A DNA stretch of 64,000 nt, taken from the NCBI GenBank assembly GCA_051294905.1, contig CM119371.1:7380001-7444000 (forward strand), given 5' to 3'. The position numbers were made by a program, and so were the translations under genes. This document shows positions 11,498 through 59,731 of the stretch, one piece after another (within the stretch, counting starts at the first letter, position 1; each line of letters begins with the position of its first letter). The notes below the pieces were generated by a model, which saw nothing but the letters and a program-made list of their open reading frames with translations, had not been told where the DNA came from and searched no databases. This DNA comes from Botryllus schlosseri (taxonomy: Eukaryota).

Positions 11498-13120
11498 CTA
11501 TCTCTTCACAAATACGGAACCGTAAATTCGAAAACATTGCTCTACTTTTGGTTTCACTACAGTCCATTTGTCTTGTGATGTATCATACTTTTCAATTGCA
11601 TCAGAGGTTTCTCCATCTGTTACTGCAAAAATCCACTTGTCGATGTGATAAGCAGAAACTGGACCATGACGAGCATTCATAGAAGATAATGAAGTCCACT
11701 GAGCTGAAGTAACATCGTAACATTCCACGTTTTCGACTTGGTATCCTCCAGCACTCACCCCACCGATCACAAATATCTTCTGATCAATTGCAACAACACC
11801 ACTCTCATAAACAGGATATCTCATTGGTTCGAGATCAACCCACTCTGATGAATATGGAGTGAATCTGCTGAGTGATGAAACTATTACATGATCTTGCCCG
11901 ACACCACCGATACAATAGATGGAATCATTCAATGATACGAGACTTGTTGAACGAATTGCTGAAGGTTTGTCTTTTAGTTGAAACCATTGATTCGCGGGAG
12001 AAGTAAATATTTCTACATCTCTTGTTGCTTCAATATAACTTCCTCCAACAACGCATATTGATCCTGACAAAGAAACTGAGCGAGGCTCGATTCCATGCTC
12101 ACAAATCATATCTTTCATCCTTTCCCATTTTGAATTCTTGTTCTGAAAATAAAGACGATGGACTGATTTATTTAGACACAACAAGTAGATATGCGAGTCT
12201 AGAGGAATCGCCGAGAAATGTTTTAAAGTCGCAAACTTCTCATCATGAAACTTCTCTAATTTCTCAGTTACTGGATTGAAAGATCGGATGCAATCTGCCT
12301 GATCGTCAAAAAGAATTATCAATTCATCTTCGCTGATTTCTTGGTTTGTTTTCTGTGATGCTTTCAACAGATGACCATTGATCAACTTGTACAGTCCTAA
12401 GTCGTTACTGATAATTTGGTTGGATTCCAAAAGACGTTGTAAATATTCTGGGGAGACTTTCTCAAACTTGATCGCTTCAAGACATTCGCGCAAATGTTCC
12501 AGATTTTCGCGATTTTTCTCGATCCAATTGAACAATAACGTTAGTTTTTCTTCTTCGCATAATTTTGATTGTTCCAACTTCACAAAATTCCGGATGCTAG
12601 TTTTCTCAATATTTCCAAATTCGGGTTGGTTTGAAATTTCCATAATATTTTCATGAAAACATTCTCTACATCGCGTAGACACGGCATCCAGTCCATACAT
12701 ATCAGCGACATTTCTTGTGGAAAAGTAATTCTCTACATTAACAGATTCCTGCAAAACGTCAGATACTGCTTGTTTCACGTCTTCCAGCTGCATCATGATT
12801 GCGACATGAAGAAGATCATTCATTTTTTCATCGGGAATCTCAAATTTGCCCGAATATATGAAATCGATGCAGTTTTTCACACACTGAGAATCGACCTCTT
12901 GCAAAACAACTTTTCCTTCCCGAATCTCTTTAGTGTCGTGTTTCAACATAGCTTTGAAATAATCACAACCAGCCGACAATACATTTCTGTGAGTGTAATA
13001 GACATCATCTCCTACTTGAATTATGAAATCACAATGATCGTTTTCTTGCTTCATTCGATCTAATTCTTCCATCATCTTCACCGAATGTTTCTCTACATTT
13101 CGACACACAATCTGCACCAT
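11498..13120 (-). CDS. BTB-BACK-Kelch (KLHL-like) protein, copy K1, 540 aa, uninterrupted ORF
   Basis: BTB motifs CDFIIQVG..YTHRNVLSAGCDYFKAML and CIDFIYSGK; BACK region EEEKLTLLFNWI; Kelch blades IYCIGG..RFTPYSSEW and IFVIGG..VECYDVTSAQW. First ATG (MVQIV) is at 13120; the ORF track's extra MTI comes from a TTG start. Confidence 0.95.
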   Translation of the reverse strand: MVQIVCRNVEKHSVKMMEELDRMKQENDHCDFIIQVGDDVYYTHRNVLSAGCDYFKAMLKHDTKEIREGKVVLQEVDSQCVKNCIDFIYSGKFEIPDEKMNDLLHVAIMMQLEDVKQAVSDVLQESVNVENYFSTRNVADMYGLDAVSTRCRECFHENIMEISNQPEFGNIEKTSIRNFVKLEQSKLCEEEKLTLLFNWIEKNRENLEHLRECLEAIKFEKVSPEYLQRLLESNQIISNDLGLYKLINGHLLKASQKTNQEISEDELIILFDDQADCIRSFNPVTEKLEKFHDEKFATLKHFSAIPLDSHIYLLCLNKSVHRLYFQNKNSKWERMKDMICEHGIEPRSVSLSGSICVVGGSYIEATRDVEIFTSPANQWFQLKDKPSAIRSTSLVSLNDSIYCIGGVGQDHVIVSSLSRFTPYSSEWVDLEPMRYPVYESGVVAIDQKIFVIGGVSAGGYQVENVECYDVTSAQWTSLSSMNARHGPVSAYHIDKWIFAVTDGETSDAIEKYDTSQDKWTVVKPKVEQCFRIYGSVFVKR

Positions 13121-13578
13121 GATTGTCAATCAACTACAGTCCAATCCTACGATAATTATAATATAGTCAAGCACTGTTATTGAATTAAAGAGGATCAGTT
13201 TACTCGAGTAGCCTAATGCCTGTTGAAAGAATCACAATATCACAATAAACGTCACGAGTATGAATTGAAGAAAATTCAACTACACACAAGGTGAACACTG
13301 AACAGTGCGAAGTCAGAGACATCCCTGCCACAATGCAGTTATGAAAACTTCTTCCGTCGATTTGCCTTACGTTTTATCCGTTGTATTGACACGAAACCGA
13401 ATCGTTATAGCGGTCGATTACCACCACCTCGTGAATGATCGAGTTGATTATCCGTAATCTAAATTGTATTTTGGAACATCGGTAAATAGTTCTATACTGT
13501 GGTATAGTCCAGGGGCGACCGCATCTGTTTCATGCTCCAACCGAATATCACAAAGATTCTACAGGGTTGGTTCGATTA

Positions 13579-13750
13579 TGTTCACAATAAGAGCAAGTCT
13601 GTTCACAATAAGAGCAGTCTCATGTTCACAATAAGAGCAGTCATGTTCACAATAAGAGCAGTCATGTTCACAATAAGAACAGTCTCATGTTCACAATAAG
13701 AGCAGTCATGTTCACAATAAGAGCAGTCATGTTCACAATAATATTCACAA
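13579..13750. repeat. 21/23-bp minisatellite (TGTTCACAATAAGAGCAGTC[TC]A), about 8 units
   Basis: Head-to-tail units with no spacers. Confidence 0.92.
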
Positions 13751-14269
13751 TACACATACCAGACATGGTGTGTCCGAATTGTTTCTTGCTGTACATTTAT
13801 TATGGCTTCCATGTGCCATCAACCAGAGATGAGATAAGAGATGAAGCGGTCAAGCACGAGTGATGCGGTCACGCACAGTTGGGTAAGGCATGACGTCATA
13901 CCTTGCTACTTTACAGGGAAGCATCATCATAATACATACAATAACCCACGTAACATCCCTTTCTCAAAACATCACAAAATAATAGAAAACGAAGCGAACC
14001 GGAATAGGATATAAATTACAGCAACGAATCAAGTTGTAACATAGTCTTGCAAGTATGCTGGTCGAATTACTGTACGGCTTGGCCTGCTGCTACTGGAACC
14101 AGATAACGACCCATTAGTGTCGCTGTCAACCATCAACCAGAGATGAGATAAGAGATGAAGCGGTCAAGCACGAGTGATGCGGTCACGCACAGTTGGGTAA
14201 GGCATGACGTCATACCTTGCTACTTTACAGGGAAGCATCATCATAATACATACAATAACCCACGTAACA
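13579..14269 (-). mobile_element. Miniature (TRIM-like or internally deleted) LTR retroelement
   Basis: Identical 140-bp direct repeats at 13816-13955 and 14130-14269, starting TGTTAC on the minus strand; polypurine tract GAGAAAGGGA abutting the 3' LTR; AATAAA in the 3' LTR; TG...CA ends; near-TSD CGATTA / CGAATA. Confidence 0.75.
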
Positions 14270-14680: not shown

Positions 14681-15239
14681 CGCCGTTTTGTGCGGCCCGC
14701 GAGAGTCTAAATAAACTTTTTTTAAATTTTGATAAAATGCGTAGGCCTACTAAAAATCGAGTTAATGCAGGGCCTTGATTAACTTTTTCTTATTATATTT
14801 CACCATGATAATTCTAAGACAGAGCAAATTGACGGGTGAAAAACGGTGATTTCAGCTCTGAGCGAAAAGATGACCTTTTTTTTTTTTTTATAGTCATCCA
14901 CCTAGCAATGTGGGGAGAAAAGCGGTATTTTTAGTACTGAGCGGAAGCGATGAGCTTTTTTTTTTTTTAGTCATCCACCTAGCAATGTGGGGTGAAAAGC
15001 GGTATTTTTAGTTCTGAGCGGAAGAGATGAGCTTTTTTTTTTTTTTCAGTTAACCAGTCACAAAGTGGGTGAAATTAACCGGTTTTTGAGAATTCTACTC
15101 CGGTTTTGAAAGTTGGAAATTTATGAAAAAGTGTCCTCTTTTTAGATTTCCAAAATATGGTAAGCCTAATATAGTGCGGCCCGCGAATGAATTCAGATGT
15201 TGAATGCGGCCCGCGAGCTCAAAAGTTTGCCCACCCCTG

Positions 15240-18567: not shown

Positions 18568-20689
18568 TACTTCATTTTTCCAGATCCGGTCCGCCGAACG
18601 AAGAAGTTGCCCACCCCCGTTCTAAATGTACACCGCATAATAATCAGGTCGACAACTCGCTTGATTCACAATTTCATGCTTTCAACACAGTTTATTTTTA
18701 CAAACAGTAGCCTAGACGAGTAAGAAACCCAATTATACGTGATTCATTTCACAGGAAATTGTGAGAATTCACACATACGCAGTTGTGAGCAACAGATAGA
18801 ACGAAGACAGAGAGACATTAAATTCAAGCTTAACCTGAACACAGTCATGTCTTAGAATGTGCAACCTAAATTCCAGTTTCCCTAAAGAGACCGTGTTTCG
18901 GCTTCGGGAATAGTCAGAGTTAACATATCTGCAAAAAGCAGTGGTTCTTGTCCTTTTTCTAGCCATGGCCCAATTTCAATTTTGCAAATATGTCATAGCC
19001 CACCACTAGGCCTCAGTCTCCATTTAAGCGGATGCAATACGGCAGGTTTAGGCATTGAAGTTCATATGATCATATCAAATCATAGTTCGTTCTCATGAGC
19101 ACGATAATGGCAAATGTATGTATCGCAAGCTTGGACGTTTCAAACTATACAGTTCTTCTGTAGCCTTGATAAGAAAACTGAAAATTAGGGTGGAACATTT
19201 CCAAAATTATATTAGAATTAGAGCAAGAAACATTTCACAAATTAGATTAGAGTCAGATTACTGGCATCTTCCTCTGATTAGTCGAAGTAGACAACTAAAA
19301 ATATCCAGTTGTCCGAGTCTGTCTGGACCGTATCTGCCTTTTTGGGTCAATTGTTTGATTTGGGGGTCCGACTTGGATTATAAATTGATGCCTGCATTGC
19401 GCTTCGCCCGGTCACTAGATGTCGACAAAGTGAAAGAGGCACTTTTCGTAATGAGTTTTGAAATTTTGCCGGTGCCTGATTCTATCGTCGTGAGTCGAGA
19501 CAGCCTGTGACCCAGGAAGGTGATCTGGGGTTTGAATTTTATGAATTCTTCGTTTGATTGAGTCGTCAAATTCTTACTCGCTTTGGGACGTCGCGCAGGA
19601 CTGGGCCGGTTCACGTCCTCCTCGATCTGCAAAAAATAGCAGGGGGTCAGTCAATACTAGCAGTGGAATCACAAGATATTAAGGTATATTTCTGAGCCCG
19701 ATCCCGGGATTAATTCTATTGAAATCCCGAAATTTTGAGAAAGCTTCTACCAGACCTGATGTAGAGCTTACTTTGCTCTTAAGCAGCATTACAATATAAG
19801 CTGACAGTCTTGAACAGTCTACATTGCTGCGATAATAATACGAACTATGGAACAAAAATGAACTATGCCAGTGTCTACATCTTTTTCGAAATGGCTCACT
19901 ATTTTGTAGTATACGCAAAACTTGTCCAGTTCACCTTCACATAATACATCAAATCCATAGCAATCCTGATCGGAATAGGGATGGGTAAGGCTGCAACTCA
20001 TCGGAAATGCTAATGCTAAAAACTAATCGGCATTCGAGAGTGTTGGATCACGGTCTAACAGTGGTTTTCAACTGGGGTCGAGGAAACATTATAAGGAAAC
20101 CTCGAGCCGATTGATAAATACAATATTGGAAACTAGGGTAGATTATGTGAATCCATTTTGCCTCTAACTGCTAAAACTTCGTGGCTTACATAAGCCGAAT
20201 GACCGTTTGATACCAGATATCAAACTGTGCCAGCTCATTTTAATTGCCTGCAAGCCATTTAGTCAATGGGTAGACCTATTGTTACAAACATTTCGCTGTA
20301 TCGGGCTAAATTGTTGAGGTTTGTGGAAAAACTGCAAATTAGGAATGGAAAGGTCAATCAGAGCAACAATAATAAGAAACCGCCTAAACGATGATACTCT
20401 CAGTGTTTACATGATTTTACGTCGGTGTTACAATATATGTATGTGGCATGCATGTGTGTTTTTCTATTTCGCTAATCCTGCGATTTCAATTTTGATCACG
20501 AAATCCCAACCCTAGTCAATACACCCACGCAGGGGGACTCCCCATCTTCCGTGGGTCCCGCACTTATTTTGGTATCCTATCTTGAAAAAAAGATTGCGCA
20601 TATGATAGGAATCTGAACTTGTACTATTCAAAGTTCTTCAAGCAGGTTTCGTCTACTTCTACAACTACCTGAAGTGGTTAGTTTTTATT

Positions 20690-28241: not shown

Positions 28242-29861
28242 CTATCTCTTCACGAATACGGATTTGTAAATCTCAAAACAGTGATTTATTTTTGGTGTCA
28301 CTATGGTCCATTTGTCTTGTGTTATATCATACTTTTCAATTGTATTAGAGGTTTTTCCTTCTGCTACTGCAAAAACCCACTTGTCATGTTGATAAGCAGA
28401 AACCCAATCATGCCGAGCATTCATAGAAGAAGATGAAGACCATTGAGCTGAAGTAACATCATAACATTCTACGTTGTTGACTTGGAGTCCTCCCCTCCCT
28501 CCACCGATCACAAATATCTTGTGATCAACTGCAACAACACCATTGTCACATACAGGATATCTCATTGGGTTAAGATCAACCCACTCTGACGAGGATGGAG
28601 TGAATCTGCAGAATGAAGAAACTATGGCACCATTTTGTCCTCTACCTCCGATACAATAGATGGAATCATTCAATGATACAAGACTTGCATCAGATATCGC
28701 TATAGGTTTGTCTTCTAGTTGAATCCACTGATTCACGAGGGAAGTAAACATTTCCACATCACTTGTTGCTTTAGGATCGCTTCCTCCAACGACAAATATC
28801 GCTCCCGACAAAAAAACTGCACAAGGATAGTTTCCATGATCACAAATCATATCTTTCATCTTTTCCCACGTTGATTTTTCGCTCTGAAAATTGAGTCGGT
28901 AAACTGATTTCGTCACACATAAAACGTAGATATACGAGTCTAGAGAAATCGCAGAGAAAAGTGGTAAATTCTTAAACTTCTCATCATGGAACTTGTCTAC
29001 TTTTTCCGTTACTGGATTGAAGGATCGGATAAGATCTGTGTCATTATCAAAAAGAATTATCAATTCATCTTTGCCAATTTCTTTGTTTCTTTTTTGTGAT
29101 GCTTTTAAAAGATGTCCATTGATCAACTTGTAAAGTCCTAAGTTGTTACTGATAATTAGGTTAGATTCCAAAAGACGTTCTAAAAATGCCGGAGAGACTT
29201 TATTGAAGTTGATTGCTTCGAGACATTCGTCCAAATGTTCCCGATTTTTGCAATTTTTCTCGACCCAATTGAACAATAACTTTAGTTTTTCTTCTTCACA
29301 TAACTTTGATTTTTCCGACATCACAAATTTGAGGATGATAGTTTTTTCAATGTTCCCAAATTCAGGTTGATTTGATATTTCTATGATATTTTCATGAAAA
29401 AATGCTCTACATCGGGTAACGACGGCATTCAGTCCATACATATCGGCAACATTTTTTGTGGAAAAGTAATTCTCTACATTAACTGATTCCTCCAAGATGT
29501 GAGATACTGCCTGTTTGACATCATCCAACTGCATCATGATTGCGACATGAAGAAGCTCATTCATCTTTTCTTCAGGGATCTCAAATTTGCCCGAATATAT
29601 GAAATCGATGCAGCTTTTCACACACATAGAATCGACCTCTTTCAAAACAACTTTTCCTTCACGACTCTCTTTTGTGTCGTGTTTCAACATAGCTTTAAAA
29701 TAATCACAACCAGCCGACAATACATTTCTGTGAGTGTAATAGACATCATCTCCCACTTGAACTATGAAATCACAATGATCCTTTTCTTGCTTCATTCGAT
29801 ATAATTCTTCCATCATCTTCACTGAATGTTTGTCTACATTTCGACACACAATCTGCACCAT
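28242..29861 (-). CDS. BTB-BACK-Kelch protein, copy K2, 539 aa
   Basis: Colinear paralogue of K1 with the same BTB, BACK and Kelch motifs; open frame from ATG to TAG. Confidence 0.95.
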   Translation of the reverse strand: MVQIVCRNVDKHSVKMMEELYRMKQEKDHCDFIVQVGDDVYYTHRNVLSAGCDYFKAMLKHDTKESREGKVVLKEVDSMCVKSCIDFIYSGKFEIPEEKMNELLHVAIMMQLDDVKQAVSHILEESVNVENYFSTKNVADMYGLNAVVTRCRAFFHENIIEISNQPEFGNIEKTIILKFVMSEKSKLCEEEKLKLLFNWVEKNCKNREHLDECLEAINFNKVSPAFLERLLESNLIISNNLGLYKLINGHLLKASQKRNKEIGKDELIILFDNDTDLIRSFNPVTEKVDKFHDEKFKNLPLFSAISLDSYIYVLCVTKSVYRLNFQSEKSTWEKMKDMICDHGNYPCAVFLSGAIFVVGGSDPKATSDVEMFTSLVNQWIQLEDKPIAISDASLVSLNDSIYCIGGRGQNGAIVSSFCRFTPSSSEWVDLNPMRYPVCDNGVVAVDHKIFVIGGGRGGLQVNNVECYDVTSAQWSSSSSMNARHDWVSAYQHDKWVFAVAEGKTSNTIEKYDITQDKWTIVTPKINHCFEIYKSVFVKR

Positions 29862-39952: not shown

Positions 39953-41569
39953 TCACAAAACGGATTTGTAAATTCGACAACATTGATCTTCTTTTGGTTT
40001 CACTATAGTCCATTTGTCTTGTGATATATCATAATTTTCAATTGCATTAGCGGTTCCTCCATCTGTTACTGCAAAAATCCACTTGTCGATGTGATAAGCT
40101 GAAACCCAGCCATGACAAGCATTCATCGAAGATAATGAAGTCCACTGAGCTGAAGTAACGTCGTAGCATTCTACGTTGTTGAGTTTCATTCTTCCATCCC
40201 TGCCACCGATCACAAATATCTTTTGATCAACTGCAACAACACCACTCGCACGTACAGGATATCTCATTGGGTCGAGATCAACCCACTCTGATGAGGATGG
40301 AGTGAATCTGCAGAATGATGGAACTATGATACCATCTTGTCTTCTACCTCCGATACAATAGATGGAATCGTTCAAGGATATGAGACCTGCATCACGTATG
40401 GCTGTTGGTTTGCCTTCTAGTTGAATCCATTGATTCACAAGGGAAGTAAATATTTCCACATCACTTGTTGCTTTGGAATAACTTCCTCCAACAACGACTA
40501 TTGATCCCGACATAGAAACTGAGCGAGGAGTCAATCCATGGACACAAATCATATCTTTCATCCTTTCCCATTTTGAATTTTTGCTCTGAAAATTGAGTCG
40601 ATGAACTGATTTATTCCCACATAAAATGTAGATATACGAGTCTACAGAAATCGCCGAGAAATGCTTTAAATTCGTAAACTTCTCATCATGAAACTTCTCT
40701 ACTTTCTCAGTTACTGGATTGAAGGATCGGATACAATCTGCGTTATCATCAAAAAGAATTATCAAATCATCTTTGCCGATTTCTTCGTTTGTTTTCTGTG
40801 ATGCTTTTGAAGCTTTTAAGAGACGTCCAGTGATCAACTTGTACAGTCCTAAGTCGTTACTGATGATATGGTTTGATTCCAAAAGACGTTCTAAAAATGC
40901 AGGAGAGACTTCATCAAACTTGATTGCTTCGAGACATTCGTGCAAATGTTCCTGATTTCTGCAATTTTTCTCGACCCAATTGAACAATAAATTTAGTTTT
41001 TCTTCTTCACATAACTTTGATTTTTCCGACATCACGAATTTGAGGATGTTAGGTTTTTCAATGTTTCCAAATTCAGGTTGGTTTGATATTTCCATGATAT
41101 TGTCATGAAAAAATGCTCTACATCGCGTAGAGACGGCATCCAGTCCATACATATCGGCGACATTTCTTGTGGAAAAGTAATTCTCTTCATTAATTGATTC
41201 CTCCAAAAAGTCGGATACTGCGTGTTTGACGTCTTCCAACTGCATCATGATTGCGACATGAAGATCATTCATCTTTTCATCAGGAATCACAAATTTGCCT
41301 GAATATATGAAATCGATGCAGCTCTTCACACACTGAGAATCAACCTCTTTCAAAACAACCTTTCCTTCACGACTCTCTTTTGTGTCGTGCTTTAACATAG
41401 CTTTGAAATAAGCACAACCAGCCGACAATACATTTTTGTGGGTGTAATAGACATCATCTCCCACTTGAATTATGAAATCACAATGATCGTTTTCTTGCTT
41501 CATTCGATGTAATTCTTCCATCATCTTAACTGAATGTTTCTCTGCATTTTTACATACAATCTGCACCAT
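39953..41569 (-). CDS. BTB-BACK-Kelch protein, copy K3, 538 aa, with altered C-terminus
   Basis: Colinear paralogue. A 1-bp deletion near the end gives YKSVL* instead of YKSVFVKR*; it also has a 1-aa deletion (NDLHV) and a 3-aa longer linker (KASKASQK). Confidence 0.92.
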   Translation of the reverse strand: MVQIVCKNAEKHSVKMMEELHRMKQENDHCDFIIQVGDDVYYTHKNVLSAGCAYFKAMLKHDTKESREGKVVLKEVDSQCVKSCIDFIYSGKFVIPDEKMNDLHVAIMMQLEDVKHAVSDFLEESINEENYFSTRNVADMYGLDAVSTRCRAFFHDNIMEISNQPEFGNIEKPNILKFVMSEKSKLCEEEKLNLLFNWVEKNCRNQEHLHECLEAIKFDEVSPAFLERLLESNHIISNDLGLYKLITGRLLKASKASQKTNEEIGKDDLIILFDDNADCIRSFNPVTEKVEKFHDEKFTNLKHFSAISVDSYIYILCGNKSVHRLNFQSKNSKWERMKDMICVHGLTPRSVSMSGSIVVVGGSYSKATSDVEIFTSLVNQWIQLEGKPTAIRDAGLISLNDSIYCIGGRRQDGIIVPSFCRFTPSSSEWVDLDPMRYPVRASGVVAVDQKIFVIGGRDGRMKLNNVECYDVTSAQWTSLSSMNACHGWVSAYHIDKWIFAVTDGGTANAIENYDISQDKWTIVKPKEDQCCRIYKSVL

Positions 41570-41659: not shown

Positions 41660-41800
41660 TAGGGCGATTTTTTGAACGTGTCAAAATTGAAGCGTTGGGT
41701 CAAAAATTGTCAAAATTGTTCACTAAGTCAAAATTATCATTTGTAGCCTATTTTATAGGCCTACCGTTGCAGACGGCCATTGTCTGCTCATTGTAAATCC
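41660..41800. mobile_element. End of a TAGGGCGATT hAT element immediately upstream of K3
   Basis: Reverse complement of about 1790-2007; it replaces the upstream region conserved in K1, K2 and K4. Confidence 0.75.
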
Positions 41801-49251: not shown

Positions 49252-50898
49252 CTATCTCTTCACAAATACGGATTTGTAAATACGACAACGTTCATCTACA
49301 TTTGTTTTCACTTTGGTCCATTCGTCTTGCGATATATCATACTTTTTAATATGATCAGAGTCGAAAATTGATACTGCAAAAATCCACTTGTCGATGTGAT
49401 ACGCAGAAACTAGAAAATGAAAAGCATTCATAGAAGATAATGAAGTCCACTGAGCTGAAGTAACATCGTAACATTGTACAGTGACGATCTTGATTTCTCT
49501 CCTCACCCCATCGATTACAAACATCTTTAATCCACCGATCACGTATATCTTCTGATCAACTGCAACAACACCACTCGCACAAACACGATATATCATCTGT
49601 TTGAGATCAACCCACTCTGATGAGGATGGAGTGAATCTGCAGAATGATGAAACTGTGAGATCATTTTGTCCTATACCTCCAATACAATAGATGGAATCAT
49701 TCAATGATACGAGACTTGTTAAACGAATCGCCGAAGGCTTGTGTTTCAGTTGAAACCATTGATTCGCAGGGTGAGTAAATATTTCCACATCTCTGGTTGC
49801 TTCAGAACTTCCTCCGACGACGCATATTGATCCTGACAAAGAAACTGAGCGAGGCCAGAATCCATGATCACAAATCATATCTTTCATCCTTTCCCATTTT
49901 GAATTTTTGCTCTGAAATTTGAGTCGATGAACTGATTTATTCCCACATAAAACATAGATATACGAGTCTAGAGAAATCGCCGAGAAATGTTTTAACTGCC
50001 TTAACTTCTCATCATGAAACTTCTCTACTCTCTCAGTTACTGGATTGAAGGATCGGATACAATCTGCTTTACGATCAAAAAGAATTATCAATTCATCTTT
50101 GCTAGATTCTTTGTCGGTTTTCTGTGATGCTTCTGAAGTCTGCAAAAACTGTCCAGTGATCGTCTTGTACAATCCAAAGTCGTTACTGATAATTTGGTTT
50201 GATTCCAAAAGACGTTTTAAATATGCCGGAGAGACTTTATCCAACTCGATTGCTTCTAGACATTCGTGCAAATGTTCTTGATTTTTCCAATTTTTTTCAA
50301 CCCAATCGAACAATACCATCAGTTTATCTTCCTCGCATAACTTTGATTTTTCCAATATCACAGATTTGAGGATGTCAGTTTTTTTAATATTTCCAAATTC
50401 AGGTTGGTTTGAAATTTCCATGATATTTTCATGAAAAAATGCTCTACATCGCGTAGAGACGGCGTCCAGTCCATACATATCAGCGACATTTCTTATGGAA
50501 AAGTAATTCTCTACATCAACTGATTCCTCCAAAACGTCAGATACTGCCTGCTTCACGTCTTCCAACTGCATCATGACTGCGACATGCAGAAGATCATTCA
50601 TCTTTTCATCAGAAATCTCAAATTTGCCAGAATATATGAAATCGATGCAGTTTTTCACACACTCAGAATCGACCTCTTTGAGAACAACTTTTCCTTCACG
50701 ACTCTCTTTGGTATCGTGCCTTAACATCGCTTTGAAATAAGCACAACCAGCAGACAATACATTTTTGTGAGTGTAATAGACATCATCTCCCACTTGAATT
50801 ATGAAATCACAATGATCGTTCTCTTGCTTCATTCGATGTAATTCTTCCATCATCTTCACTGAATGTTTCTCCACATTTTTACACACAATCTGCACCAT
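49252..50898 (-). CDS. BTB-BACK-Kelch protein, copy K4, 548 aa
   Basis: Colinear paralogue with an in-frame insertion after YVIGG (LKMFVIDG); first ATG at 50898. Confidence 0.95.
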   Translation of the reverse strand: MVQIVCKNVEKHSVKMMEELHRMKQENDHCDFIIQVGDDVYYTHKNVLSAGCAYFKAMLRHDTKESREGKVVLKEVDSECVKNCIDFIYSGKFEISDEKMNDLLHVAVMMQLEDVKQAVSDVLEESVDVENYFSIRNVADMYGLDAVSTRCRAFFHENIMEISNQPEFGNIKKTDILKSVILEKSKLCEEDKLMVLFDWVEKNWKNQEHLHECLEAIELDKVSPAYLKRLLESNQIISNDFGLYKTITGQFLQTSEASQKTDKESSKDELIILFDRKADCIRSFNPVTERVEKFHDEKLRQLKHFSAISLDSYIYVLCGNKSVHRLKFQSKNSKWERMKDMICDHGFWPRSVSLSGSICVVGGSSEATRDVEIFTHPANQWFQLKHKPSAIRLTSLVSLNDSIYCIGGIGQNDLTVSSFCRFTPSSSEWVDLKQMIYRVCASGVVAVDQKIYVIGGLKMFVIDGVRREIKIVTVQCYDVTSAQWTSLSSMNAFHFLVSAYHIDKWIFAVSIFDSDHIKKYDISQDEWTKVKTNVDERCRIYKSVFVKR

Positions 50899-51407
50899 GA
50901 TTGTCAATTAACTACAATATATAATGATTCTACGATTATTATGATGTAGTAGCACTGTTATTAAAGTAAAGATGATTAGGTAGCTCAAGTAATGCCTGAA
51001 CAAAGCATCATAATACTTATCAACGTCACAATTATGAATTGATGTGAAATCAACTACACACAAGTCGCAGTTGTAAGCAAACAGATAGGATAAATGCGAG
51101 AGGAGAGACATTGAATTTCAAGCTTAATCTGAACACAGTCATGTCTAAAATTTAGTGTTGATATATTTATAAAAACCTGCTATGCTATAGCCGCAGGTTC
51201 CACAAAAAACAACCCAATATTATTCAAAACACTGATGCGAAGTGAAGATGTCAAACTATCTGTAGTAATCAAAGCGAAAGAATCAAAACTTCTGTACAAC
51301 ATCATCTATAGGCTACATAGTAAGTATTAGAATATGCAACCTAAATTGCATATTTTCCCCCAAGTAAAAGAAGCCGTATTGTGGCTTTGGGAATAGTCAG
51401 GATTACC

Positions 51408-51877
51408 AGAGAGAGATAGATAGAGAGAGATATTTATTGATTTGTCCAACCGTAAAGAAAACATCATTGGCACATGCAACAACAATAAATGAACTTACGG
51501 TATAGGACAGGGTGTGACCGATATGACTCTGGGTAGGGTCAACTAGTCTGATCACACCCTGCATTAACAAATACAGATTTTGTGTTATAAATTTGGATGC
51601 ATTGGTTGGGATCAATCAATTCAGCTCAGCATAAAAATAAAATACTAAAGAAACTACAAATTTGGTGGGAGACAAGTGGATCATTGGTAATGGGAGATGA
51701 GGTGACTAAATAATTCCTTTTTGAAGGAGTGGTATGGGAGGTCCCGTATTGAAGAGGGTATAGCATTCCATATGACAGGACCGGCATAGTCGATCGATTT
51801 CTTTGTGAGGCTACTGGTGGGTCGATGAAAATAGATGTTGCCCTGGGAAGTAAATCTGGTATTGTGTGAGTGAACAC
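51408..51877 (-). mobile_element. 5'-truncated LINE 3' end (CR1/L2-group ORF2 C-terminus plus 3' UTR)
   Basis: HSHNTR..SIDYAGPVIWNAIPSSIR..SFKKELFSHL* matches the CR1/L2-group C-terminal motif; AATAAA followed by a (TC/TATC)n tail; empty site at about 42245. Confidence 0.82.
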
Positions 51878-52663
51878 AATGGTGGTTCTTGAACTTTTCA
51901 TGGATGCGGCTCAATTTTCATTTCGCAAATATGCCATGATCCACAACTCAGCCTCAATCTCTATCTAAGCGGCGGCAATATGGCAGGTTTAGAGAGGTGA
52001 CCTATGTAATGGGTGTTACATCACAATTCCCTCGTCATTGACCTGAGTTATTGTTTCAACTGAATAGCAGGTTGTAAATTCAGATTGGGGCGCTAATATC
52101 ATTTACGAGCGACACAGTGAAATTTTACGATTCTTCAAGGGATATCTGGACCTTGACTTGAACAACTAGAACTTTTCAGATTTTTCAAATAAGGGTAAAA
52201 TCAGAATAATAGCTACACTGTTTTTTTTTCAAATGAAGGGTAAAATAAGAATGATACCTAAACAGTGTTTTACAAACTAGATTAAAATTACAAATATAGT
52301 TACTTTTTTTTTCAAATCATATTCGAATTGCCGAGTCCACGATAACTTGGACATTGAATCAAGTTCAGAGCTAGTCATAGTGTGAGCACGATAAAGGCAA
52401 ACCTTAGCTCGTTTCGTGCTATACAGACCTACTGGAGCATTTACAGGAAAACTGGAAGATAGATTAGAATAAAAATTAAAGCATAGAAACATTATTGAAA
52501 TTAAATTAGTATTAAAGCAAGGACACATTTCACGAATTCGACTACTTGCATTTCAACCTAATTAGTCAAATTGTACAACTAAAATTATGTAGTTGTCCAA
52601 GTAGGTCTGGATTCTGGACAGTCTCCGATTTTTTAGGTGAACTGTTTGATTTGGAGTCCGACT

Positions 52664-53214
52664 CAGGGTTGTAACCAAGTCACAAGGCTTCGAGTCACAA
52701 GTCAATCTCACATTTATAGTTTTGACTCGAGTCAAGTCGAGTCATTTCAATTCACCACCGAGTCAAGTCCGAGTCCAAGTCAGCGAGCAGAGTGCCGAGT
52801 CCGAGTCATGGAATTATGACTTGAGTCCGAGTCCAAGTCATTGTGTTGACTGCTCAGTTTCCAGTTGAAGTCTTGGTAAACCCACTTTTTATAATTCTGT
52901 TTGGTGATATCGAATGGTTCGCATTTATAATATACCAATTTTCCTCACTTTTAGCAGTTTATGGTCGCATTTTCAAGTACCAGTACCAACAGACGAAATC
53001 CCAATAGTGTGTTGGCTTCGGAATTACAATGAAATGTAGGTCTTGGCCGTCTGAGTCTCGAGTCAATGACTTGGTTCGAGTCATGCGCAATGACTCAAGT
53101 CCAAGTCGAGTCAATACACAGATTGACTCGAGTCGAGTCGAGTCATTTCCGTATTTTGAATAAATCAGAAAATCGTGACTTGAGTCGGACTCGAGTCGAG
53201 TCATTACAACCCTG
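52664..53214. mobile_element. hAT MITE, GACTC/GAGTC-rich family
   Basis: TIR CAGGGTTGTAA / TTACAACCCTG; TSD GTCCGACT / GTCCGACA; empty site at about 3226. Confidence 0.9.
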
Positions 53215-54135
53215 GTCCGACATGGATTGTTACTTGGTGCCTGCAAAGCGCTTCGCCTGGTCACTAGATGTCGCCAAATTGAAGGAGGCGCTTTTCGTAA
53301 CGAATTCACGACAAATGTGAAATTTTGTCGGTGTATGCTTCTGTGAGAACCTGCGATCCAGTGATGGGGCTGGAGTTGGGGCAGTGATGGGGCTGGAATT
53401 CTTCGTTTGGCTGCTTCAAGCCACCATATTCTTACTCCGCATGAAACCTTGCCGGGTATGCGCTGCTTCACGGCCCACTCGATCTGAAAAAAATATTAAT
53501 GAGTCAGTCGATACTAGCATTGGAATCACAGGATATTAAGGTATTTTTTAAATCTCGGGATTTCAAGAAAGCATCTTCCAGCAATTAGTTCGCTTTTAAA
53601 GCAGCGTTACAATATCATCTGAATTTCTTGAACACTCTACATTGCTGTGAAATTAATATCAACTATGGCATAATAATGAACTACAATCTTTTTCAATCTT
53701 TTTCGTAATGGTACGCCATTTTAAAGAATGCTCAAAACTTGTCCACCTCGGTTCACATAATATATCGAATCCGTAGCAATCTTAATCGGAAGAGGGATGT
53801 AACATGTAACCCTGCAGAATTCCATTGGAAATGCTAATGCAACCAACCAATCAGCTTTCAACATAACCGGATCCTGATTGAACACATTGCTTTTCAACCG
53901 GGGTCTACGAAACATTACTAGGCAACCGTGAACTGATTGATAAATATAATTTGTGACATCGGAAGCTAGGGTCGACCAACGCAAACACAGATCTTAACAC
54001 CATCCAGTCAGATTCCAGGTTTCCAGAGTGTACTTATGACTGATTATCAAATCAAAACTACTTACATAATTCAGTAGTTTTCAAAAACAGCAAATTCTTT
54101 TTCTCCTTGAAGTAGGCTACTTCTGGGTTGGAAAA

Positions 54136-54533
54136 TAGGGTTACCATACATCCTCCTTTTCTCAGGTTTTTGAAAATGTCCTCCGAGGACGCCTAAATGT
54201 CCTCCTTTTTGGTAATTCGTCGTCTTTTACAGCTATTACAGCCAAGATAACGGATAGATTCAAGTTAAAACGAGCATAAAAGTACGCTAAATAGAAAATT
54301 CATGGTTTGATCGAAAGTGAAGACCTTTTTTACAAGTCAACACCACTAATTTTAAGTAAAAAGTGTGTAAAACGAGTGTCGAACCAAAGTGATGACCTTT
54401 TTTTAGTCAAGCAACCATCAAATCAAGACATAAATTACCATTTTTTCCGGATATTTCTCCTGCCTTGTAAGTCTGAAAATTTTGATAAAGTGACCTCATT
54501 TGAGATTTCCAAAACATGGTAATGGTAACCCTA
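54136..54533. mobile_element. hAT MITE (TAGGGTTACC family)
   Basis: Perfect TSD TTGGAAAA; same site as 7803-8149. Confidence 0.9.
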
Positions 54534-54821
54534 TTGGAAAAGCGATACTTTTACTCGTGCTGGAGTGAACTTTGCATTGCTACTTTTACTTGGAGTAGCT
54601 TTTTCGACCACTTCTGATCATGCATACGGGCTCATGCAATCACAGATTGTTGTTCTTATTCTTAGAAACTTTTCCGAGACAGCCAAGAAACTTTACCTCC
54701 ATCCAAATTTACTGGTCTCGGTGTGCAATATTTATTGCATGATTTCTTTGTCAGCTAGGAATAAGAAAATATTGGGTGTAGACATAGGTAGAGAGTGTAA
54801 ATATTGGTGTGCTCATGTCAC

Positions 54822-55978
54822 CAGCAGAATTGGACAACTAGATAATTCCAACTAGATAATTCCAGTTGTCTAATTTCACTAAATTAGAGCGAAATGCCAG
54901 TAATCTAATTCTAATCTAATTTGTGAAATGTCCGTCTGCTCTAATTCTAGTTCTAATCCAATTATTGTTTTCCTGAAAATGCCTCTTTGTCCGAGGCATA
55001 TTGCACTATTGCAGTGAGTTAACAAGAATATCCCTCTTGCGCAGGGAAATCCAGTGCCAAGTCGCCATCGCCTTACTTACACCGTACGTTCATAGAAGAT
55101 ATTATGACGAATAATAGCCTGCTAGAGTAGCTTGTAGTCTGGGAACAACATTCTAGTTTTTAAAACTTTATGTTAGTACATGGTCATTCTGACTAACATG
55201 GGCTATGCCCACGGTTACCATAAAAGAAGTAAATAAAAGAAGTAATATTTTAATAAAGTATAGTAAAAAATCGAGCAAAGCGTGGTGTACAGAGGTTAAC
55301 CATTCTCATGGTTATGGGAATGCACTGTTGTTGTTTTTATTAAACAAAAATATGTGGCGCTTATCGCCTCAGGGCCTTTTTCACCACGCACTGTGATTTG
55401 ATGTGAACTGAATTTGGCTGTATTCCTTTCCCATATACAATTTCATTCAATTTCCAAGTGTTTGCGAACTAAGTAGCTCTAATTATAATTCTAATCTAAT
55501 TTGAAAAAAGCTATGTAGCTGTAATTCTAATTATAATTTGAAAAAAGCTGTGTAGCTGTAATTCTAATTATAATCTAATTTGTAAAAACTGTGTAGCTCT
55601 AATTCTAATTCTAATCTAATTTGAAAAAAGCTTAGTAGCTCTAATTCTAATTATAATCTAATTTGAAAAAAGCTTAGTAGCTCTAATTCTAATCTAATTT
55701 GAAAAAAGCTTAGTAGCTCTAATTCTAATTCTAATCTAATTTGAAAAAAGCTTAGTAGCTCTAATTATAATTCTAATCTAATTTGAAAAAAGCTGTGTAG
55801 CTCTAATTCTAATTCTAATCTAATTTGAAAAAAGCTGTGTAGCTCTAATTCTAATCTAATTTGAAAAAAACTGTGTAGCTCTAATTCTAATTCTAATCTA
55901 ATTTGAAAAAAACTGTGGAGCTCTAATTCTAATTCTAATCTAATTTAGAAAAGCTGAAAATTGTCTAGTTGTCCAAGT
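54822..55978. mobile_element. MITE of the TTGGACAACTAG family with an internal tandem array
   Basis: TTGGACAACTAG..CTAGTTGTCCAA inverted ends; absent at the paralogous site at about 8690; decayed relatives at about 2715-3190, 22100-22520, 33960 and 56195-56580. Confidence 0.75.
55475..55950. repeat. 36/42-bp tandem array (CTCTAATTCTAATTCTAATCTAATTTGAAAAAAGCTGTGTAG), about 12 units
   Basis: Directly visible head-to-tail units built from a CTAATT sub-repeat. Confidence 0.92.
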
Positions 55979-57159
55979 GCTGTGAATATCTATGGGATTT
56001 CATTCTGAAATTTACAATATGAATGTTTGCTATGTATATCTTTTACACTGTTGCCAATTGTGGATATGTCACAATATTTCATAGCAACTCACCTGATGTC
56101 ATCATGATTCCTGGTGCCGAGATCTTGTCTTTTGGCTGGTGAAAGCCTGAAAGAAGATCTCACAATTAGACAGCCAGAAAAATAGACTTGAACTAGATTT
56201 GGACAACTGGAAAATTTTCAGCGTTTCCAAATTAGATTACAGTTACAGCTACAAAGTTTTTGCAAATTAGAGTAAAATTATATTATAGCTACACAGTTAT
56301 TTCCAAATTTGATTAAAATTATTATTGTAGCTACAGCTTTGTCCCAATTAGATTAGAATTACAGAATTCGCGCAAACTTGGATGTTGAATCAACTTATCA
56401 AATCATGGTTCATTCTTAGTAGCATGTCTTGAGTATAGCATGCTGCACGAGGATGGCCAATGTCTGTAGAGCAAGCTTGGCTCGTTTCGCACTATACAGT
56501 TCTCCTGTAGCATTTACAGACCAACCAGAAAGTAGATTAGAAATAAAATTAGAGCATAGAAGCATTTTACAAATTAGATTACCGGTACCAGCATTTAGAA
56601 AAATTTGTTCGTTCATTAGACTCTACCCTGTGCACAATGTCACATCAACGGTGTAATTAACCAATAACCATCCAATAAAGACATCAATCTTGATGATCAC
56701 TAACGAATACAGAGGCGTGCTTGAAGGAATGGTTTTAGATGGGATTTCAAGAACATGCGGCATAGGGGAGGGAAGCTATTATCCATACTTCAATTGTTCT
56801 ATTAGCAGCCATTCACGTTAAATCAGTTCCTACAAACTGGGATAATAGTTCAGCGTTGGGGCAAATTGAAAACTGATATCATTATGTTAACTTTACTAAT
56901 CAACTCCTAAATTCTTCCATAGGTGCGAATTGAATGTTGATGTCTGTCCTAATTGTGACTTGAAAAAACGCAGCCAGATAAAACTCACCTTACATGACAA
57001 TTTGTAAATTGCTTGAAAGTTGCAGCTTGCTTGACTCTTATTGCAAGAAAATCCTTGCCTGTGATGATAAGGAAAGGATGCGTCAGGTTGGAAACGATTA
57101 AAATTTGAACTTTACAGTCACCAATGTGTTCAGACTTGTTGCTACAGATGTAAATAAGG

Positions 57160-57589
57160 TAGGATTACTATATTTCGAAATCGGGAAAGAGGACACTTCT
57201 ACCAAATCATTTCAAGTTAGTTGAACAAAACTGAAAGCAGCCGATTTTGCAATATTCACCGGAAATTATGTTGAGTTCACTACAAAAAAAGAGTTCATCA
57301 TTTTTACTCGACTCCTGATTTACCCACTTTTTATTTGAATTTTGTGGTATCACTAAAAAAAGTAACCACTATCATTTAAATCCCGAATTGGCCCCACGAA
57401 CGTTCGTATTGCCAATTTCACGTCATTTATGCAGATTTCCGTTGAATCTGTCCATTAACCTAGCTGTAAAAGCTGTAAATGAGGACCGATTGCCCAAAGG
57501 GAGGGCATATATCCGTCCTCGAAGGACATTTCTAAAAACCTGAAAAAGGTGGTAAAAACCTTCCTAAACGAGAACGTATGGTAACCACA
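57160..57589. mobile_element. Degenerate hAT MITE
   Basis: Termini TAGGATTAC / GGTAACCACA; perfect TSD AAATAAGG; empty in paralogues (gaaataagatc). Confidence 0.78.
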
Positions 57590-59025
57590 AAATAAGGTCG
57601 TTAATCGTGGTTGAGTTGAGTTTATTGAGAATGATTGTATCATTTCAAAAACACCCCACCGCAGCTCAGCATTGATGGCAAATAATCGAATCCAAAATCA
57701 TTGATGAATTCAGAATGACTCACTTTTATCTCTCGAATTGAATCGTCAGACATTGATGCATGTCAGATTCCAACTGATTGAGATTGTCATGCAAACTTCT
57801 TTCATCACCAAAGCCACTTCCCATCGGCCAACCAGACTATGAAATGATACGTTATAAATTATGATCTTCTGGTTGCAATCCACTGTAAAAAATTGAAAAG
57901 AGTGGTTATGAAAAGTAACATCAATGAATGTATTGTATATACTCCACAGGTTGCTCAAACCAGGCTATCGTACAAGAAGATGTGGTAGATAACGAGTTGC
58001 CGATAGTCGCCTCATAATCAAAGTGGTTTGTTAAGTAACATGCGGAAAAATTCGGATTTCTTGATCATGGATAGCAAAAAAATAATGCCACACAATAAAG
58101 ACAACAAATTACATCAGATTTAATCTCGTACTTGGATATAAAGTTGTAACTTGGCTCAAAAAGTGGCTCAACAAGGATGACATCCACACTTTTTGAAATT
58201 TTCATGCATTGAATCATTGAATGCAGTGGGTTATTTCATACCGAATTATTGGAAGGGTAAAACTTATACGCCGTACTGTAAACAATAGGTTCCCAACTCC
58301 TGATAAGGGCCATATCACCCTAGTGGGATCAATTGTGCAAGTCGTCAAAATGAACAACCATATCTATATTGGGCAAGGTAGTAAATATATGATGGGCTGC
58401 ATCAACTAGAATTACTGGCAGGATTATGCACATTGTACGTACAAGTACTGAAGTATATTTATACAAAATTACTGGCTTCTTTTGCTATTACATTCATCAA
58501 ATGATATGAATCTACCAAAAAGTACTTTACACATGACAGAATATGGAAAATTGAACATACGGATACAAATTTCTGCCGATTTGAAACAAAAAATGCACAA
58601 TCTTGAAGGCAATTACCATATGATGCATATAGCTTTATGAGTTGAAAATTTCAATGGTGGGCGACTTTAGTTTTATTCATGTCTCAGTGGCAGATTTGTA
58701 CAAACTACTAATCCAGTTGGTTTATGGTCAAATAGTAGTTCCAGTTGCAAATTTCAAAGCAAGTAGTTTAGCGCGAATAGTGATACTGGTGTTCTGCTGT
58801 TTGGCGTTCTTGTAGCTATTGTTAACATGGAGTCAACACTACAAATAACAATGGTGTGGCCAGTAAATGGGTTTTGAGGGTAGAAAACTGTCCATTTCGA
58901 ACTTCAAACCTTTCAACACAGATTCTGTCTCCAAGTCAGAGTAATTTGCATTAGAAGTACCCTACTGCACTCGCTTAAGAACTGAAAATCCAGTAATTGC
59001 TCAAGTTTGCTCAGTTGAGTGCAAT

Positions 59026-59731
59026 CTATATCTTCACAAATACTGATTTGTAAACTGGAAAACATTGATCTACTTTTGGCTTCCCTATAGTCCATTTGTC
59101 TTGTGATATATCGTACTTTTCAATTGCATCAGAAGTTTCTCCATCTGTTACTGCAAGAATGCACTTGTCAATGTGATATGCAGAAACTCGATAATGCCCA
59201 TCATTCATAGAAGATAATGAAGTCCACTGAGCTGAAGTAACATCGTAACATTCTACGTTGTCGACACACTTTATTCCACCCCAGCCACCGATCACAAAAA
59301 TCTTTTGATCAACTGCAACAACACCACTCCCACAAATAGGATATCTCATTGGGTCGAGATCAACCCACTCTGATGAGGATGGAGTGAATCTACAGAATGT
59401 TGCAACTATGACACCATCTTGTCCTTCACCTCCGATACAATAGATGGAATCATTCAATGATACAACACTTGTATCACATATCGCTGTAGGTTTGTCTTCT
59501 AGTTGAATCCATTGATTTACGAGGAAAGTAAATATTTCCACAACACTTGTTGCTTTAGTATAACTTCCTCCAACAATAAAAATTGATCCTGACAAATAAA
59601 CTGCGCGAGGATAGGCTCCATGATCACAAATCATATTTTTCATCTTTTCCCATTTTGAATTTTTGATCTGAAAATTGAGTCTATGAACTGATTTATTTCT
59701 ACATAAAACGTAGATATACGAGTCTAGAGAA
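59026..59731 (-). pseudogene. 5'-truncated Kelch-only copy K5 (BTB/BACK missing)
   Basis: Homology to K1-K4 runs from SLDSYIYVLC to YKSVFVKI* and stops abruptly at about 59731, where a GACTC-rich MITE fragment begins. Confidence 0.88.

Follow-up and report, generated by a model that had tools for sequence, protein, structure and literature searches.

Within a 64,000-nt stretch of a Botryllus schlosseri contig (the window) and the far larger region around it (the array), we find tandem BTB-BACK-Kelch genes whose scaffold is under purifying selection and whose binding face is diversified. We give a probability of roughly three in four to the reading that this is a lineage-specific birth-and-death array of such intronless genes, most likely a repertoire of Cul3-RING substrate receptors. 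The presence in the window of tandem copies with a constant frame and variable loops is confirmed. As a whole the array resembles an extensive and so far undescribed repertoire for intracellular recognition, and our search of the literature found no published description of it.

Gene copies in the window and the surrounding array

The features of the window, with the copies designated K1 to K5, are the following.

11498..13120 including the stop (11501-13120 without), minus strand: K1, intact single-exon BTB-BACK-Kelch gene, 540 aa
~12743-13060, minus strand: BTB domain of K1
~12428-12721, minus strand: BACK domain of K1
11501-12325, minus strand: six-blade Kelch propeller of K1
13121..13260, minus strand: conserved 5′ flank of K1, ~140 nt, likely core promoter and short 5′ UTR
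11228..11497, minus strand: conserved 3′ flank of K1, ~270 nt, likely 3′ UTR; equivalent blocks follow K2-K4
28242..29861 (28245-29861 without stop), minus strand: K2, intact BTB-BACK-Kelch gene, 539 aa
29862-30001, minus strand: equivalent 5′ flank block of K2
39953..41569 (39956-41569 without stop), minus strand: K3, intact BTB-BACK-Kelch gene, 538 aa
41570-41709, minus strand: equivalent 5′ flank block of K3
49252..50898 (49255-50898 without stop), minus strand: K4, intact BTB-BACK-Kelch gene, 548 aa
50899-51038, minus strand: equivalent 5′ flank block of K4
59029..59739, minus strand: K5, 5′-truncated, Kelch-only copy with blades II-VI (K1 residues ~303-539)
59816..60479, no strand assigned: segment in place of the 5′ half of K5, a duplicate of an array 3′-flank segment

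All three domains are present in K1-K4, which belong to the BTB-BACK-Kelch (KLHL/KBTBD) proteins: Pfam BTB (PF00651) matches them at E 2.6e-22 to 7.1e-19 and BACK (PF07707) at E 1.3e-13 to 2e-12, and Kelch_1 matches them as well. The BTB of K3 is one residue shorter and its C-terminus comes three residues earlier, and K4 carries an extra 8 residues in the B-C loop of blade V. K5 matches Kelch alone, with Pfam BTB absent, and tblastn, matching its C-terminal half only, found no N-terminal match indicative of a BTB/BACK remnant. Its nucleotide homology to the other copies ends at 59731 or 59739 (self-blastn), and upstream of this its reading frame runs on without a stop as far as 59862, across unrelated sequence. 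The segment that replaces its 5′ half duplicates ~58165-58758, 10486-10982 and 27382-27991 at 71-74% identity (self-blastn).

Assignment of the flanks is suggested by their conservation. Across 31 copies the majority-base frequency of the 5′ flank is 0.79-0.89 versus 0.34-0.59 farther upstream, and a TATA-like TATATTATAATA lies inside it, ~39-50 nt upstream of the K1 ATG. In the 3′ flank the frequency is 0.85, 0.68 and 0.65 per successive 100-nt block and then 0.52.

The array spans 0.96 Mb (C1:6.59-7.55 Mb) and contains 52 matches at 77-85% amino-acid identity, 45 of them full-length and open and 49 on the minus strand. K5 is a 53rd copy, so that the array holds at least 53, at least 8 of which are truncated or contain stops; genome-wide, at least 89 distinct related places were found. 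The flanks were duplicated together with the genes (70-85% identity), and the array was probably built by unequal crossing-over between units of 9-17 kb, with birth and death of the intronless genes. Only three full-length relatives above 40% identity, all unnamed proteins, were found among 1.84 billion (1.84e9) representatives, and the nearest named proteins, KLHLs of Styela clava, are ~30% identical. Restriction of the family to its lineage is supported by these comparisons.

Fold and relationship to Cul3 adaptors

The AF2 model of K1 (pLDDT 90.5) has 24 strands arranged as six blades of four, the C-terminal strand 531-539 closing blade I, and is helical over residues 132-257 (BACK). Foldseek with this model returned KBTBD2-CUL3-Rbx1 and CUL3-KLHL22 as full-length matches, together with the Kelch domains of KLHL12 and KEAP1 (TM 0.83-0.84, rmsd 2.8-3.2), and a PDB profile search matched KEAP1, KLHL22 and KBTBD2. 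Domain order, six-blade fold and length class are thus shared with vertebrate KEAP1, KLHL12, KLHL22 and KBTBD2 (PDB 6wcq, 2vpj, 8khp, 8gq6), whereas the array proteins are only 18-24% identical to these and their genes are intronless.

In solved homologues BTB and BACK form the Cul3-docking, dimerising half, and the BTB motif phi-x-E is a Cul3 contact. Residues T63-K64-E65 of K1 align with L-R-E of KEAP1 and L-K-E of KLHL22; the phi position is Thr in the array, unlike the Leu of these vertebrate Cul3 adaptors, and Glu65 does not vary among the 56 aligned sequences. The genome contains a Cul3 orthologue (C14, ~12.39-12.41 Mb), an exon of which matches PDB Cullin-3 at E 6e-26. By homology, the array proteins would dock to Cul3 and act in ubiquitylation.

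Selection on the predicted binding face

The six loop series quoted for K1-K5 in the preliminary description are all exact in our alignment: HG-IE/NY/LT/FW/AY-P; AI-RS/SD/RD/RL/CD; GG-V/R/R/I/E; V-YE/CD/RA/CA with I-CG; a GG loop ending in Q, K or C that holds the K4 insertion; and the series that begins N-ARHGP. Among K1-K4, invariant columns make up 80% of BTB, 66% of BACK and 69% of the strands, compared with 33% of the B-C loops and 45% of the D-A loops. In the selection set of 44 distinct intact paralogues dN/dS was 0.14 for BTB, 0.36 for BACK, 0.29 for strands, 0.34 for bottom loops, 1.20 for B-C loops and 0.61 for D-A loops, at a dS of ~0.25-0.34. The contrast between constant and variable parts drawn in the preliminary description stands, but its wording that BTB/BACK and blade strands are nearly invariant in K1-K5 is too strong for BACK and, K5 having neither BTB nor BACK, applies in that half to K1-K4 only. 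Its expectation of dN/dS above 1 in the loops holds at the level of sites and for the B-C class, but not for the D-A class or for all top loops pooled (0.84), and selection is therefore site-specific and not loop-wide.

Sites were evaluated by a site-mixture (omega-mixture) test in a custom implementation, neither codeml nor HyPhy, in which branch lengths were fixed except for a scale factor and omega took values on a discrete grid. Over the whole gene the 2dlnL was ~749; over the Kelch domain it was 539, and 27 sites were selected at P(omega>1) >= 0.95. Twenty-four of these fall in the B-C and D-A top loops, which comprise 112 of the 274 Kelch columns (Fisher p = 8e-8); selected sites number 1 among 40 bottom-loop columns and 2 among 121 strand columns. 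The variable sites thus cluster on one face, the KEAP1-type substrate face, as had been proposed. In the alignment V407 of K1 meets the Arg of KEAP1 'GGRNN', and Y438/E439 the Asn-Arg of 'PRNRIG'; the variable array positions are blade-equivalent to these KEAP1 loop residues, which we take to be Nrf2 contacts. The selected B-C positions are the first residues past the GG doublet, and the selected D-A positions the last one or two residues right before strand A. The selected sites are rich in Arg, Gly and Trp. The earlier proposal of a diversifying lineage-specific family is supported in part: lineage restriction, tandem birth and death and loop-concentrated positive selection are upheld, the RNA data gave no support for expression, and the suggested functions in immunity, genetic conflict or self/non-self recognition are candidate roles.

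Each gene encodes a KLHL/KBTBD-type protein in which purifying selection holds the BTB/BACK half and the beta-strands of the six-blade propeller, and positive, diversifying selection acts at ~25 positions of the predicted binding face. Nearly every paralogue therefore has its own binding face, and 43 distinct signatures of this face occur in the 44 genes. In the mechanism we propose, each putative receptor would trap its own intracellular target, probably one that evolves quickly, for ubiquitylation; pathogens, mobile elements and germline conflict are candidate sources of such targets.

The account to which we assign the smallest weight is that the loops are merely unconstrained and that gene conversion, misaligned indel-rich loops or multi-nucleotide changes produce a spurious omega above 1, with no adaptive diversification. 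A four-gamete PHI-like test gives a weak signal of recombination (p = 0.025), and the internal branches of the star-like paralogue tree are poorly supported, which can inflate site tests. Several selected sites (455-463) adjoin indels, the pooled top loops remain below 1, and three older clusters give pN/pS of about 1 at the same 27 sites (1.07, 0.76 and 1.12). Relaxation, however, yields an omega of at most 1, and split-half cross-validation gave held-out dN/dS of 1.33-2.16 in 10 of 10 splits at 25 sites picked in the other half, with 0.25-0.28 at the remaining sites. The signal also persists, with a 2dlnL of 334, once all columns lying up to 3 positions from a gap are excluded; when the gene is partitioned into stretches of 82-99 codons, each with its own tree, it is 183, 103 and 146 for the Kelch thirds versus 8.6 for BTB. 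In eight null simulations run through the identical pipeline the 2dlnL never exceeded 6.2, and no site was selected. Finally, dS is uniform across classes, and conversion therefore does not explain the conservation of the scaffold.

It is also improbable, in our judgement, that the array is transcriptionally silent amplified DNA, decaying or epigenetically repressed, without present function and with only historical selection signals. This account would fit the RNA-seq data for K3-K5 from four bulk runs of two studies, where the mean CDS-bin depth was 0-1.08 and 96-100% of the reads fitted in part only; in the 6-13% of each run that was read there was no convincing sign that K3, K4 or K5 is transcribed. 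A few reads with differences fall near the 5′ end of the K4 gene. The truncated or interrupted copies would fit it too, as would the location of the K genes among repeats, with no other recognisable gene found in the 64-kb window. The RNA evidence nevertheless covers only three of more than 50 copies, in four samples, and 45 of 52 copies are open where the neutral expectation is 5-11 stop codons per lineage and the probability of staying open 5e-3 to 2e-5. Moreover, the low BTB ratio is found on long terminal branches, the 5′ 140 nt are conserved as much as the CDS, and pairs of intermediate age still have top-loop pN > pS. Were the genes silent, such striking long-term maintenance of open reading frames would need another explanation. 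Unlikely as well, if the least so of the three, is that the proteins are functional without being Cul3 substrate receptors, the propeller binding or sequestering cytoskeletal, structural or decoy partners and BTB serving for oligomerisation alone. Some BTB-Kelch proteins are known chiefly for binding actin, the phi position holds Thr in place of a hydrophobic residue, and Cul3 binding by the array proteins is putative. Nevertheless, BTB and BACK are the most conserved part, the best full-length structural matches of the predicted model are Cul3-bound adaptors, Glu65 is invariant and a Cul3 gene is present, all of which argue for the Cul3 substrate-receptor reading.

Relation to known adaptor families

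The array has more than 50 near-neighbours at one locus, compared with 25-50 BBK genes in an entire vertebrate genome according to Stogios 2005 (PMC1257465). Its binding face is positively selected, whereas the vertebrate adaptor face is conserved for one substrate. The nematode MATH-BTB (bath) and F-box families and the grass MATH-BTB family are likewise lineage-specific tandem expansions of cullin adaptors (PMC4091423, PMC8120010, PMC8665587), with a conserved docking domain, a positively selected substrate-binding domain and pseudogenes, which are many there. Unlike these, the array employs the Kelch propeller and not MATH or FBA/FTH for recognition, resides in a chordate relative and has regular, blade-periodic selected sites. 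A conserved docking domain with a selected substrate-binding domain is reportedly the pattern that Thomas described for nematode adaptors in 2006; the array has tandem birth and death, and positive selection on the substrate surface with a docking domain under purifying selection. Plant F-box-Kelch proteins (KFB/FBK) resemble it in using a Kelch propeller as substrate module in an expanded, tandemly duplicated cullin-adaptor family, as outlined in PMC3030570, PMC8298115 and PMC9063267. These plant proteins dock Cul1 via Skp1 and the F-box, and the array proteins carry BTB-BACK instead.

Fish finTRIM and primate TRIM5 B30.2 proteins are E3-linked intracellular receptors with large clusters and positively selected surface loops; they employ a RING ligase module and a SPRY binding fold, and their antiviral role has been shown. 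The array has another ligase module and binding fold, and finTRIM and TRIM5 serve as models for a possible immune reading of it. Tunicates, to our knowledge, lack antibody-type immunity. Tentatively, the animal may carry in this family a germline-encoded intracellular 'degradative receptor' repertoire, in which ~100 or more BTB-Kelch adaptors of Cul3 would have hypervariable positions that recur from blade to blade and resemble CDRs, each adaptor being tuned to a different viral, transposon-encoded or selfish-element protein for ubiquitylation; we regard this as a possibility on the doubtful side.

Intracellular recognition repeatedly takes the form of expanded sets of ligase adaptors under positive selection; these are poorly understood, with few of their targets identified. 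The array provides unusually clean material, with 44 intact, easily aligned, intronless paralogues, a confidently modelled fold and ~25 defined selected positions, on a Kelch scaffold for which substrate complexes are already solved and which is in use for protein design. It is a direct handle on what such repertoires recognise, and is relevant to the ways in which recognition can be diversified in invertebrate chordates, which lack adaptive immunity. If the degradative-receptor reading is true, the array would be a chordate-lineage counterpart, on a propeller scaffold, of the fish finTRIMs and the nematode F-box and MATH-BTB families.

Gene content and extent of the array

The window has a G+C content of 36-44% and carries five long reading frames, all on the minus strand.

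Long reading frames in the window (position, strand, description)
K1: 11501-13120, minus, uninterrupted ORF; Pfam BTB, BACK and several Kelch models
K2: 28245-29861, minus, uninterrupted ORF; Pfam BTB, BACK and several Kelch models
K3: 39956-41569, minus, uninterrupted ORF; Pfam BTB, BACK and several Kelch models
K4: 49255-50898, minus, uninterrupted ORF; Pfam BTB, BACK and several Kelch models
K5: 59029-59739, minus, Pfam Kelch models only

The ORFs of K1-K4 comprise 538-548 codons and start with MVQIVC. K5 is truncated at its 5' end: in a self-comparison it aligns with the other copies at the nucleotide level only as far as 59731, a duplicate of the 3'-flank segment of the array stands in place of the lost 5' half, and a tblastn search of the window with K1 residues 1-300 found four places, not five, with no match for an N-terminal half of K5. 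The six series of variable loop residues quoted for K1-K5 in the preliminary description were all exact when checked against the alignment. K4 has an 8-residue insertion in the B-C loop of blade V, and K3 lacks one residue in BTB and has its stop three codons early. Loops in the array diversify through indels as well as substitutions.

Self-comparison of the window identified the whole 9-17 kb as the tandemly repeated unit, with 84-87% nucleotide identity between units in the genes and 70-85% in co-linear intergenic blocks containing many indels. Across 31 copies, the 140 nt that lead up to the ATG match the coding sequence in conservation, with a majority-base frequency of 0.79-0.89 versus 0.34-0.59 farther upstream, and include a TATA-like TATATTATAATA located 39-50 nt 5' of the ATG; about 270 nt 3' of the stop are likewise conserved. 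The idea that a transposon or virus carries the genes was rejected, since a Pfam scan of five intergenic ORFs (among 95 ORFs in the window) gave nothing above threshold and one sub-threshold chance match, and no Rfam family or tRNA was found in the window. One member of an interspersed repeat family lies in each duplication unit (52573-53239, with copies at 2933-3557, 19070-19692, 32579-33194, 43219-43564 and 61293-61733), and its ORFs had no Pfam match. Tandem repeats occur at 13578-13741 (21 nt x 7.6, just upstream of the conserved flank of K1), 14834-15046 (77 nt x 2.7) and 55472-55957 (42 nt x 12).

The array is much bigger than the window alone could reveal. When the 495.5-Mb assembly was searched in six frames with K1, 547 first-look candidates emerged, of which 80, all with E < 1e-200, were scored. 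Fifty-two of these fall within positions 6,591,487-7,553,120 of C1, the sequence that contains the window, at 77-85% amino-acid identity to K1, 49 of them on the minus strand. Full-length open copies number 45 of the 52 (44 distinct, as one pair is identical), and the other seven are truncated, stop-bearing or have a replaced N-terminus. Further clusters with 58-72% identity are located on C1 at 13.9, 14.8-15.7 and 35.9-36.2 Mb and also on C14, C16, C3, C4 and C5, and nine new places came from repeating the search with a gene of the 35.9-Mb cluster. The genome-wide count of paralogues, proposed as a check in the preliminary description, thus stands at no fewer than 53 copies over about 1 Mb (the 52 scored and K5, which was outside the 80) and at least 89 related places in the union of both searches, and these are lower bounds since scoring was limited to 80 candidates in each search.

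The array's gene tree has a star-like shape, its terminal branches being long and its internal nodes weakly supported. The copies in the window are not each other's closest relatives, and K3 groups with a gene 790 kb distant. Three successive members at C1:7172157-7219882 lie on the plus strand, which suggests an inverted block within the array. Two pairs are 100% identical, C1:6707039-6708646 and 6851876-6853483 (145 kb apart) and C1:35879432 and 35999601 (120 kb apart), representing either very recent large segmental duplication or a duplicated assembly. For window positions 40950-50949, no public RNA run was listed as a match, and a fraction of only 0.22 of the sampled 31-mers was shared with the best public DNA run under the same species label. 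The latter could reflect high polymorphism or a structural difference between individuals; neither result is counted as evidence.

Diversifying selection on the top face of the propeller

K1 was modelled with AlphaFold2 from an alignment of 56 sequences (mean pLDDT 90.5). The model consists of BTB, a helical BACK region reaching residue 257, a short linker of low confidence and a propeller of 24 strands in six four-stranded blades, in which the C-terminal strand 531-539 closes blade I. The best full-length Foldseek matches were the KBTBD2-CUL3-Rbx1 complex and the CUL3-KLHL22-RBX1 ligase, and the K1 propeller superposed on the Kelch domains of KLHL12 and KEAP1 with a TM of 0.83-0.84. By architecture and fold the array genes are members of the BTB-BACK-Kelch family. 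In complexes of KEAP1 and KLHL proteins, substrate is bound on the top face, formed by the B-C and D-A loops, and peptide complexes of the KEAP1/KLHL type were among the Foldseek matches of the model. Kelch residues were classed from the strand map ahead of any rate estimate as strand, bottom loop (A-B and C-D) or top loop (B-C and D-A).

Nei-Gojobori estimates were pooled over the 946 pairs formed by the 44 distinct intact genes of the array.

Pooled dN/dS by structural class
BTB: 0.14
BACK: 0.36
Strands: 0.29
Bottom loops: 0.34
B-C loops: 1.20 (dN > dS in 681 of 946 pairs)
D-A loops: 0.61
All top loops: 0.84
Whole gene: 0.39

dS was nearly equal over all classes (0.25-0.34), and therefore the constant frame is held by protein-level purifying selection; on the strength of this uniformity, gene conversion was rejected as an explanation for the conserved scaffold. 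The expectation of a dN/dS above 1 in the loops was borne out for the B-C class and for individual selected sites and failed for the D-A loops and for the top loops taken together. Positive selection over whole loops was accordingly rejected in favour of site-specific selection. For a split-half cross-validation the genes were divided at random; one half served to choose the 25 most variable columns and the other to calculate dN/dS. In 10 of 10 splits the held-out ratio at these columns lay within 1.33-2.16, with a mean of 1.83, compared with 0.95-1.52 at the next 35 columns and 0.25-0.28 in the remainder, and 19-22 of the 25 were B-C or D-A loop positions. Top-loop pN exceeded pS in the gene pairs of intermediate age (L016/L025, L033/L040 and K4/L005), while the three youngest pairs had too few changes for judgement.

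Tree-based analysis employed our own code rather than codeml (GY94/F3x4, with branch lengths of the nucleotide ML tree multiplied by a fitted scale factor), and a discrete omega distribution was fitted by EM with omega either restricted to at most 1 or unrestricted. The M0 omega was 0.48. For the whole gene the unrestricted model was favoured with a 2dlnL of about 749, placing about 16% of sites in classes of mean omega 2.5, and for the Kelch domain on its own tree 2dlnL was 539. Eight null simulations through the same pipeline, including tree re-estimation, gave values of at most 6.2 and zero Kelch sites at P>=0.95. Segment-specific trees gave 8.6 for BTB, 30.8 for BACK and linker, and 183, 103 and 146 for the Kelch thirds. 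With columns three or fewer from any gap removed, 2dlnL was 334, and 17 of the 21 sites selected were in top loops. The recombination signal was weak in a PHI-like four-gamete test on 279 biallelic sites (0.266 versus 0.280 +/- 0.007 permuted, p = 0.025). A FUBAR-like alpha/beta grid returned 71 of 539 sites at P>=0.9, many with alpha about 0.2 and beta below 1, and was judged over-sensitive; the omega grid with alpha fixed, the cross-validation and the pairwise counts were relied on instead.

Twenty-seven Kelch sites reached P>=0.95 (K1 residues 273, 274, 297, 301, 316, 344, 345, 363, 375, 390, 391, 407, 413, 438, 439, 455, 456, 459, 460, 461, 463, 486, 487, 503, 508, 531 and 534). The clustering of variable residues in substrate-facing loops, noticed initially from the sequence alone, is correct and beyond chance: 24 of the 27 lie in the 112 top-loop columns (Fisher p = 8e-8), one in 40 bottom-loop columns and two in 121 strand columns. 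The pattern is blade-periodic, involving the B-C loop residues right after the GG doublet and the last one or two residues of the D-A loop before strand A. In a HMMER alignment to KEAP1, V407 of K1 corresponds to the Arg of 'GGRNN' and Y438/E439 to the Asn-Arg of 'PRNRIG', which we take to be Nrf2 contacts. Up to 15 different residues occur at one selected site, Arg (3.7x), Gly (1.8x) and Trp (1.65x) are enriched, and the 44 genes display 43 different 27-site signatures. Outside the propeller, on the segment-specific trees, omega exceeded 1 at P>=0.95 at K1 residues 7, 175, 204, 211, 235, 248, 256, 263 and 264 (window positions about 12329-13102), in the N-terminal tail, BACK domain and linker, where the segment 2dlnL values are small.

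Three older clusters, with 25 genes in all, vary most at these same columns (Spearman 0.56-0.59). Positive selection beyond the main array was not demonstrated in these genes, pN/pS at the 27 sites being 1.07, 0.76 and 1.12 with synonymous sites near saturation (pS 0.44-0.50).

Integrity and expression of the copies

About 4.4-4.8% of single-base changes in the array ORFs create a stop. Under neutrality 5-11 stops per lineage are expected (0.07-0.145 substitutions/site), with a probability of 5e-3 to 2e-5 that a frame stays open. The large number of open copies set against this expectation, together with the low BTB dN/dS, speaks for live genes. The evidence against comes from RNA-seq, examined over 39900-59899 in four bulk runs from two studies under the same species label (1.1-1.9 billion letters, or 6-13%, per run). 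Mean depth was 0-0.39 on K3, 0-1.08 on K4 and 0-0.5 on K5, and 96-100% of the reads placed matched only partially. This low depth possibly reflects tissue- or condition-restricted expression, which is an assumption. Small groups of reads with base differences on the 5' part of K4 could, at a stretch, derive from a transcribed allele or paralogue. The sole appreciable depth in this interval was on the interspersed repeat at 52573-53239 (3.6-8.5x, both orientations).

Putative Cul3 docking and relationship to known families

A multi-exon Cul3 orthologue is located at C14:12394123-12407617 (locus L077 and neighbours), its first coding exon matching PDB Cullin-3 chains with E 6e-26, and five more cullin loci were seen on C10, C16, C7, C2 and C12. 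In BTB, the Glu aligned with that of L-R-E in KEAP1 and of L-K-E in KLHL22 is invariant in 56 of 56 sequences. The BTB Cul3-docking motif is defined by a hydrophobic position ahead of this Glu, and here that position is Thr.

The closest named proteins are kelch-like 12, 24, 30 and 5 of Styela clava at about 27-32% identity, and of 1.84 billion cluster representatives no more than three that are full-length exceeded 40% (54, 47 and 43%), all from short contigs. Because of this distance to named proteins and scarcity of full-length relatives, the family is lineage-restricted and fast-evolving. By comparison, a whole vertebrate genome has 25-50 BTB-BACK-Kelch genes (Stogios 2005, PMC1257465).

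A full-text literature search turned up no publication on BTB-Kelch arrays of tunicates, on diversifying BTB-Kelch families or on this locus. What appears to be new here is the ~1-Mb BTB-BACK-Kelch array itself with its at least 53 copies, the architecture and fold being those of an already known family. The proposal of a lineage-specific adaptor family under diversifying selection passed every control applied, among them cross-validation, null simulations, segment trees and gap-column removal. With Cul3 docking putative, the array is a candidate adaptor family that would work in the manner of the adaptor expansions under positive selection in nematodes and plants, and of clusters of TRIM-type receptors.
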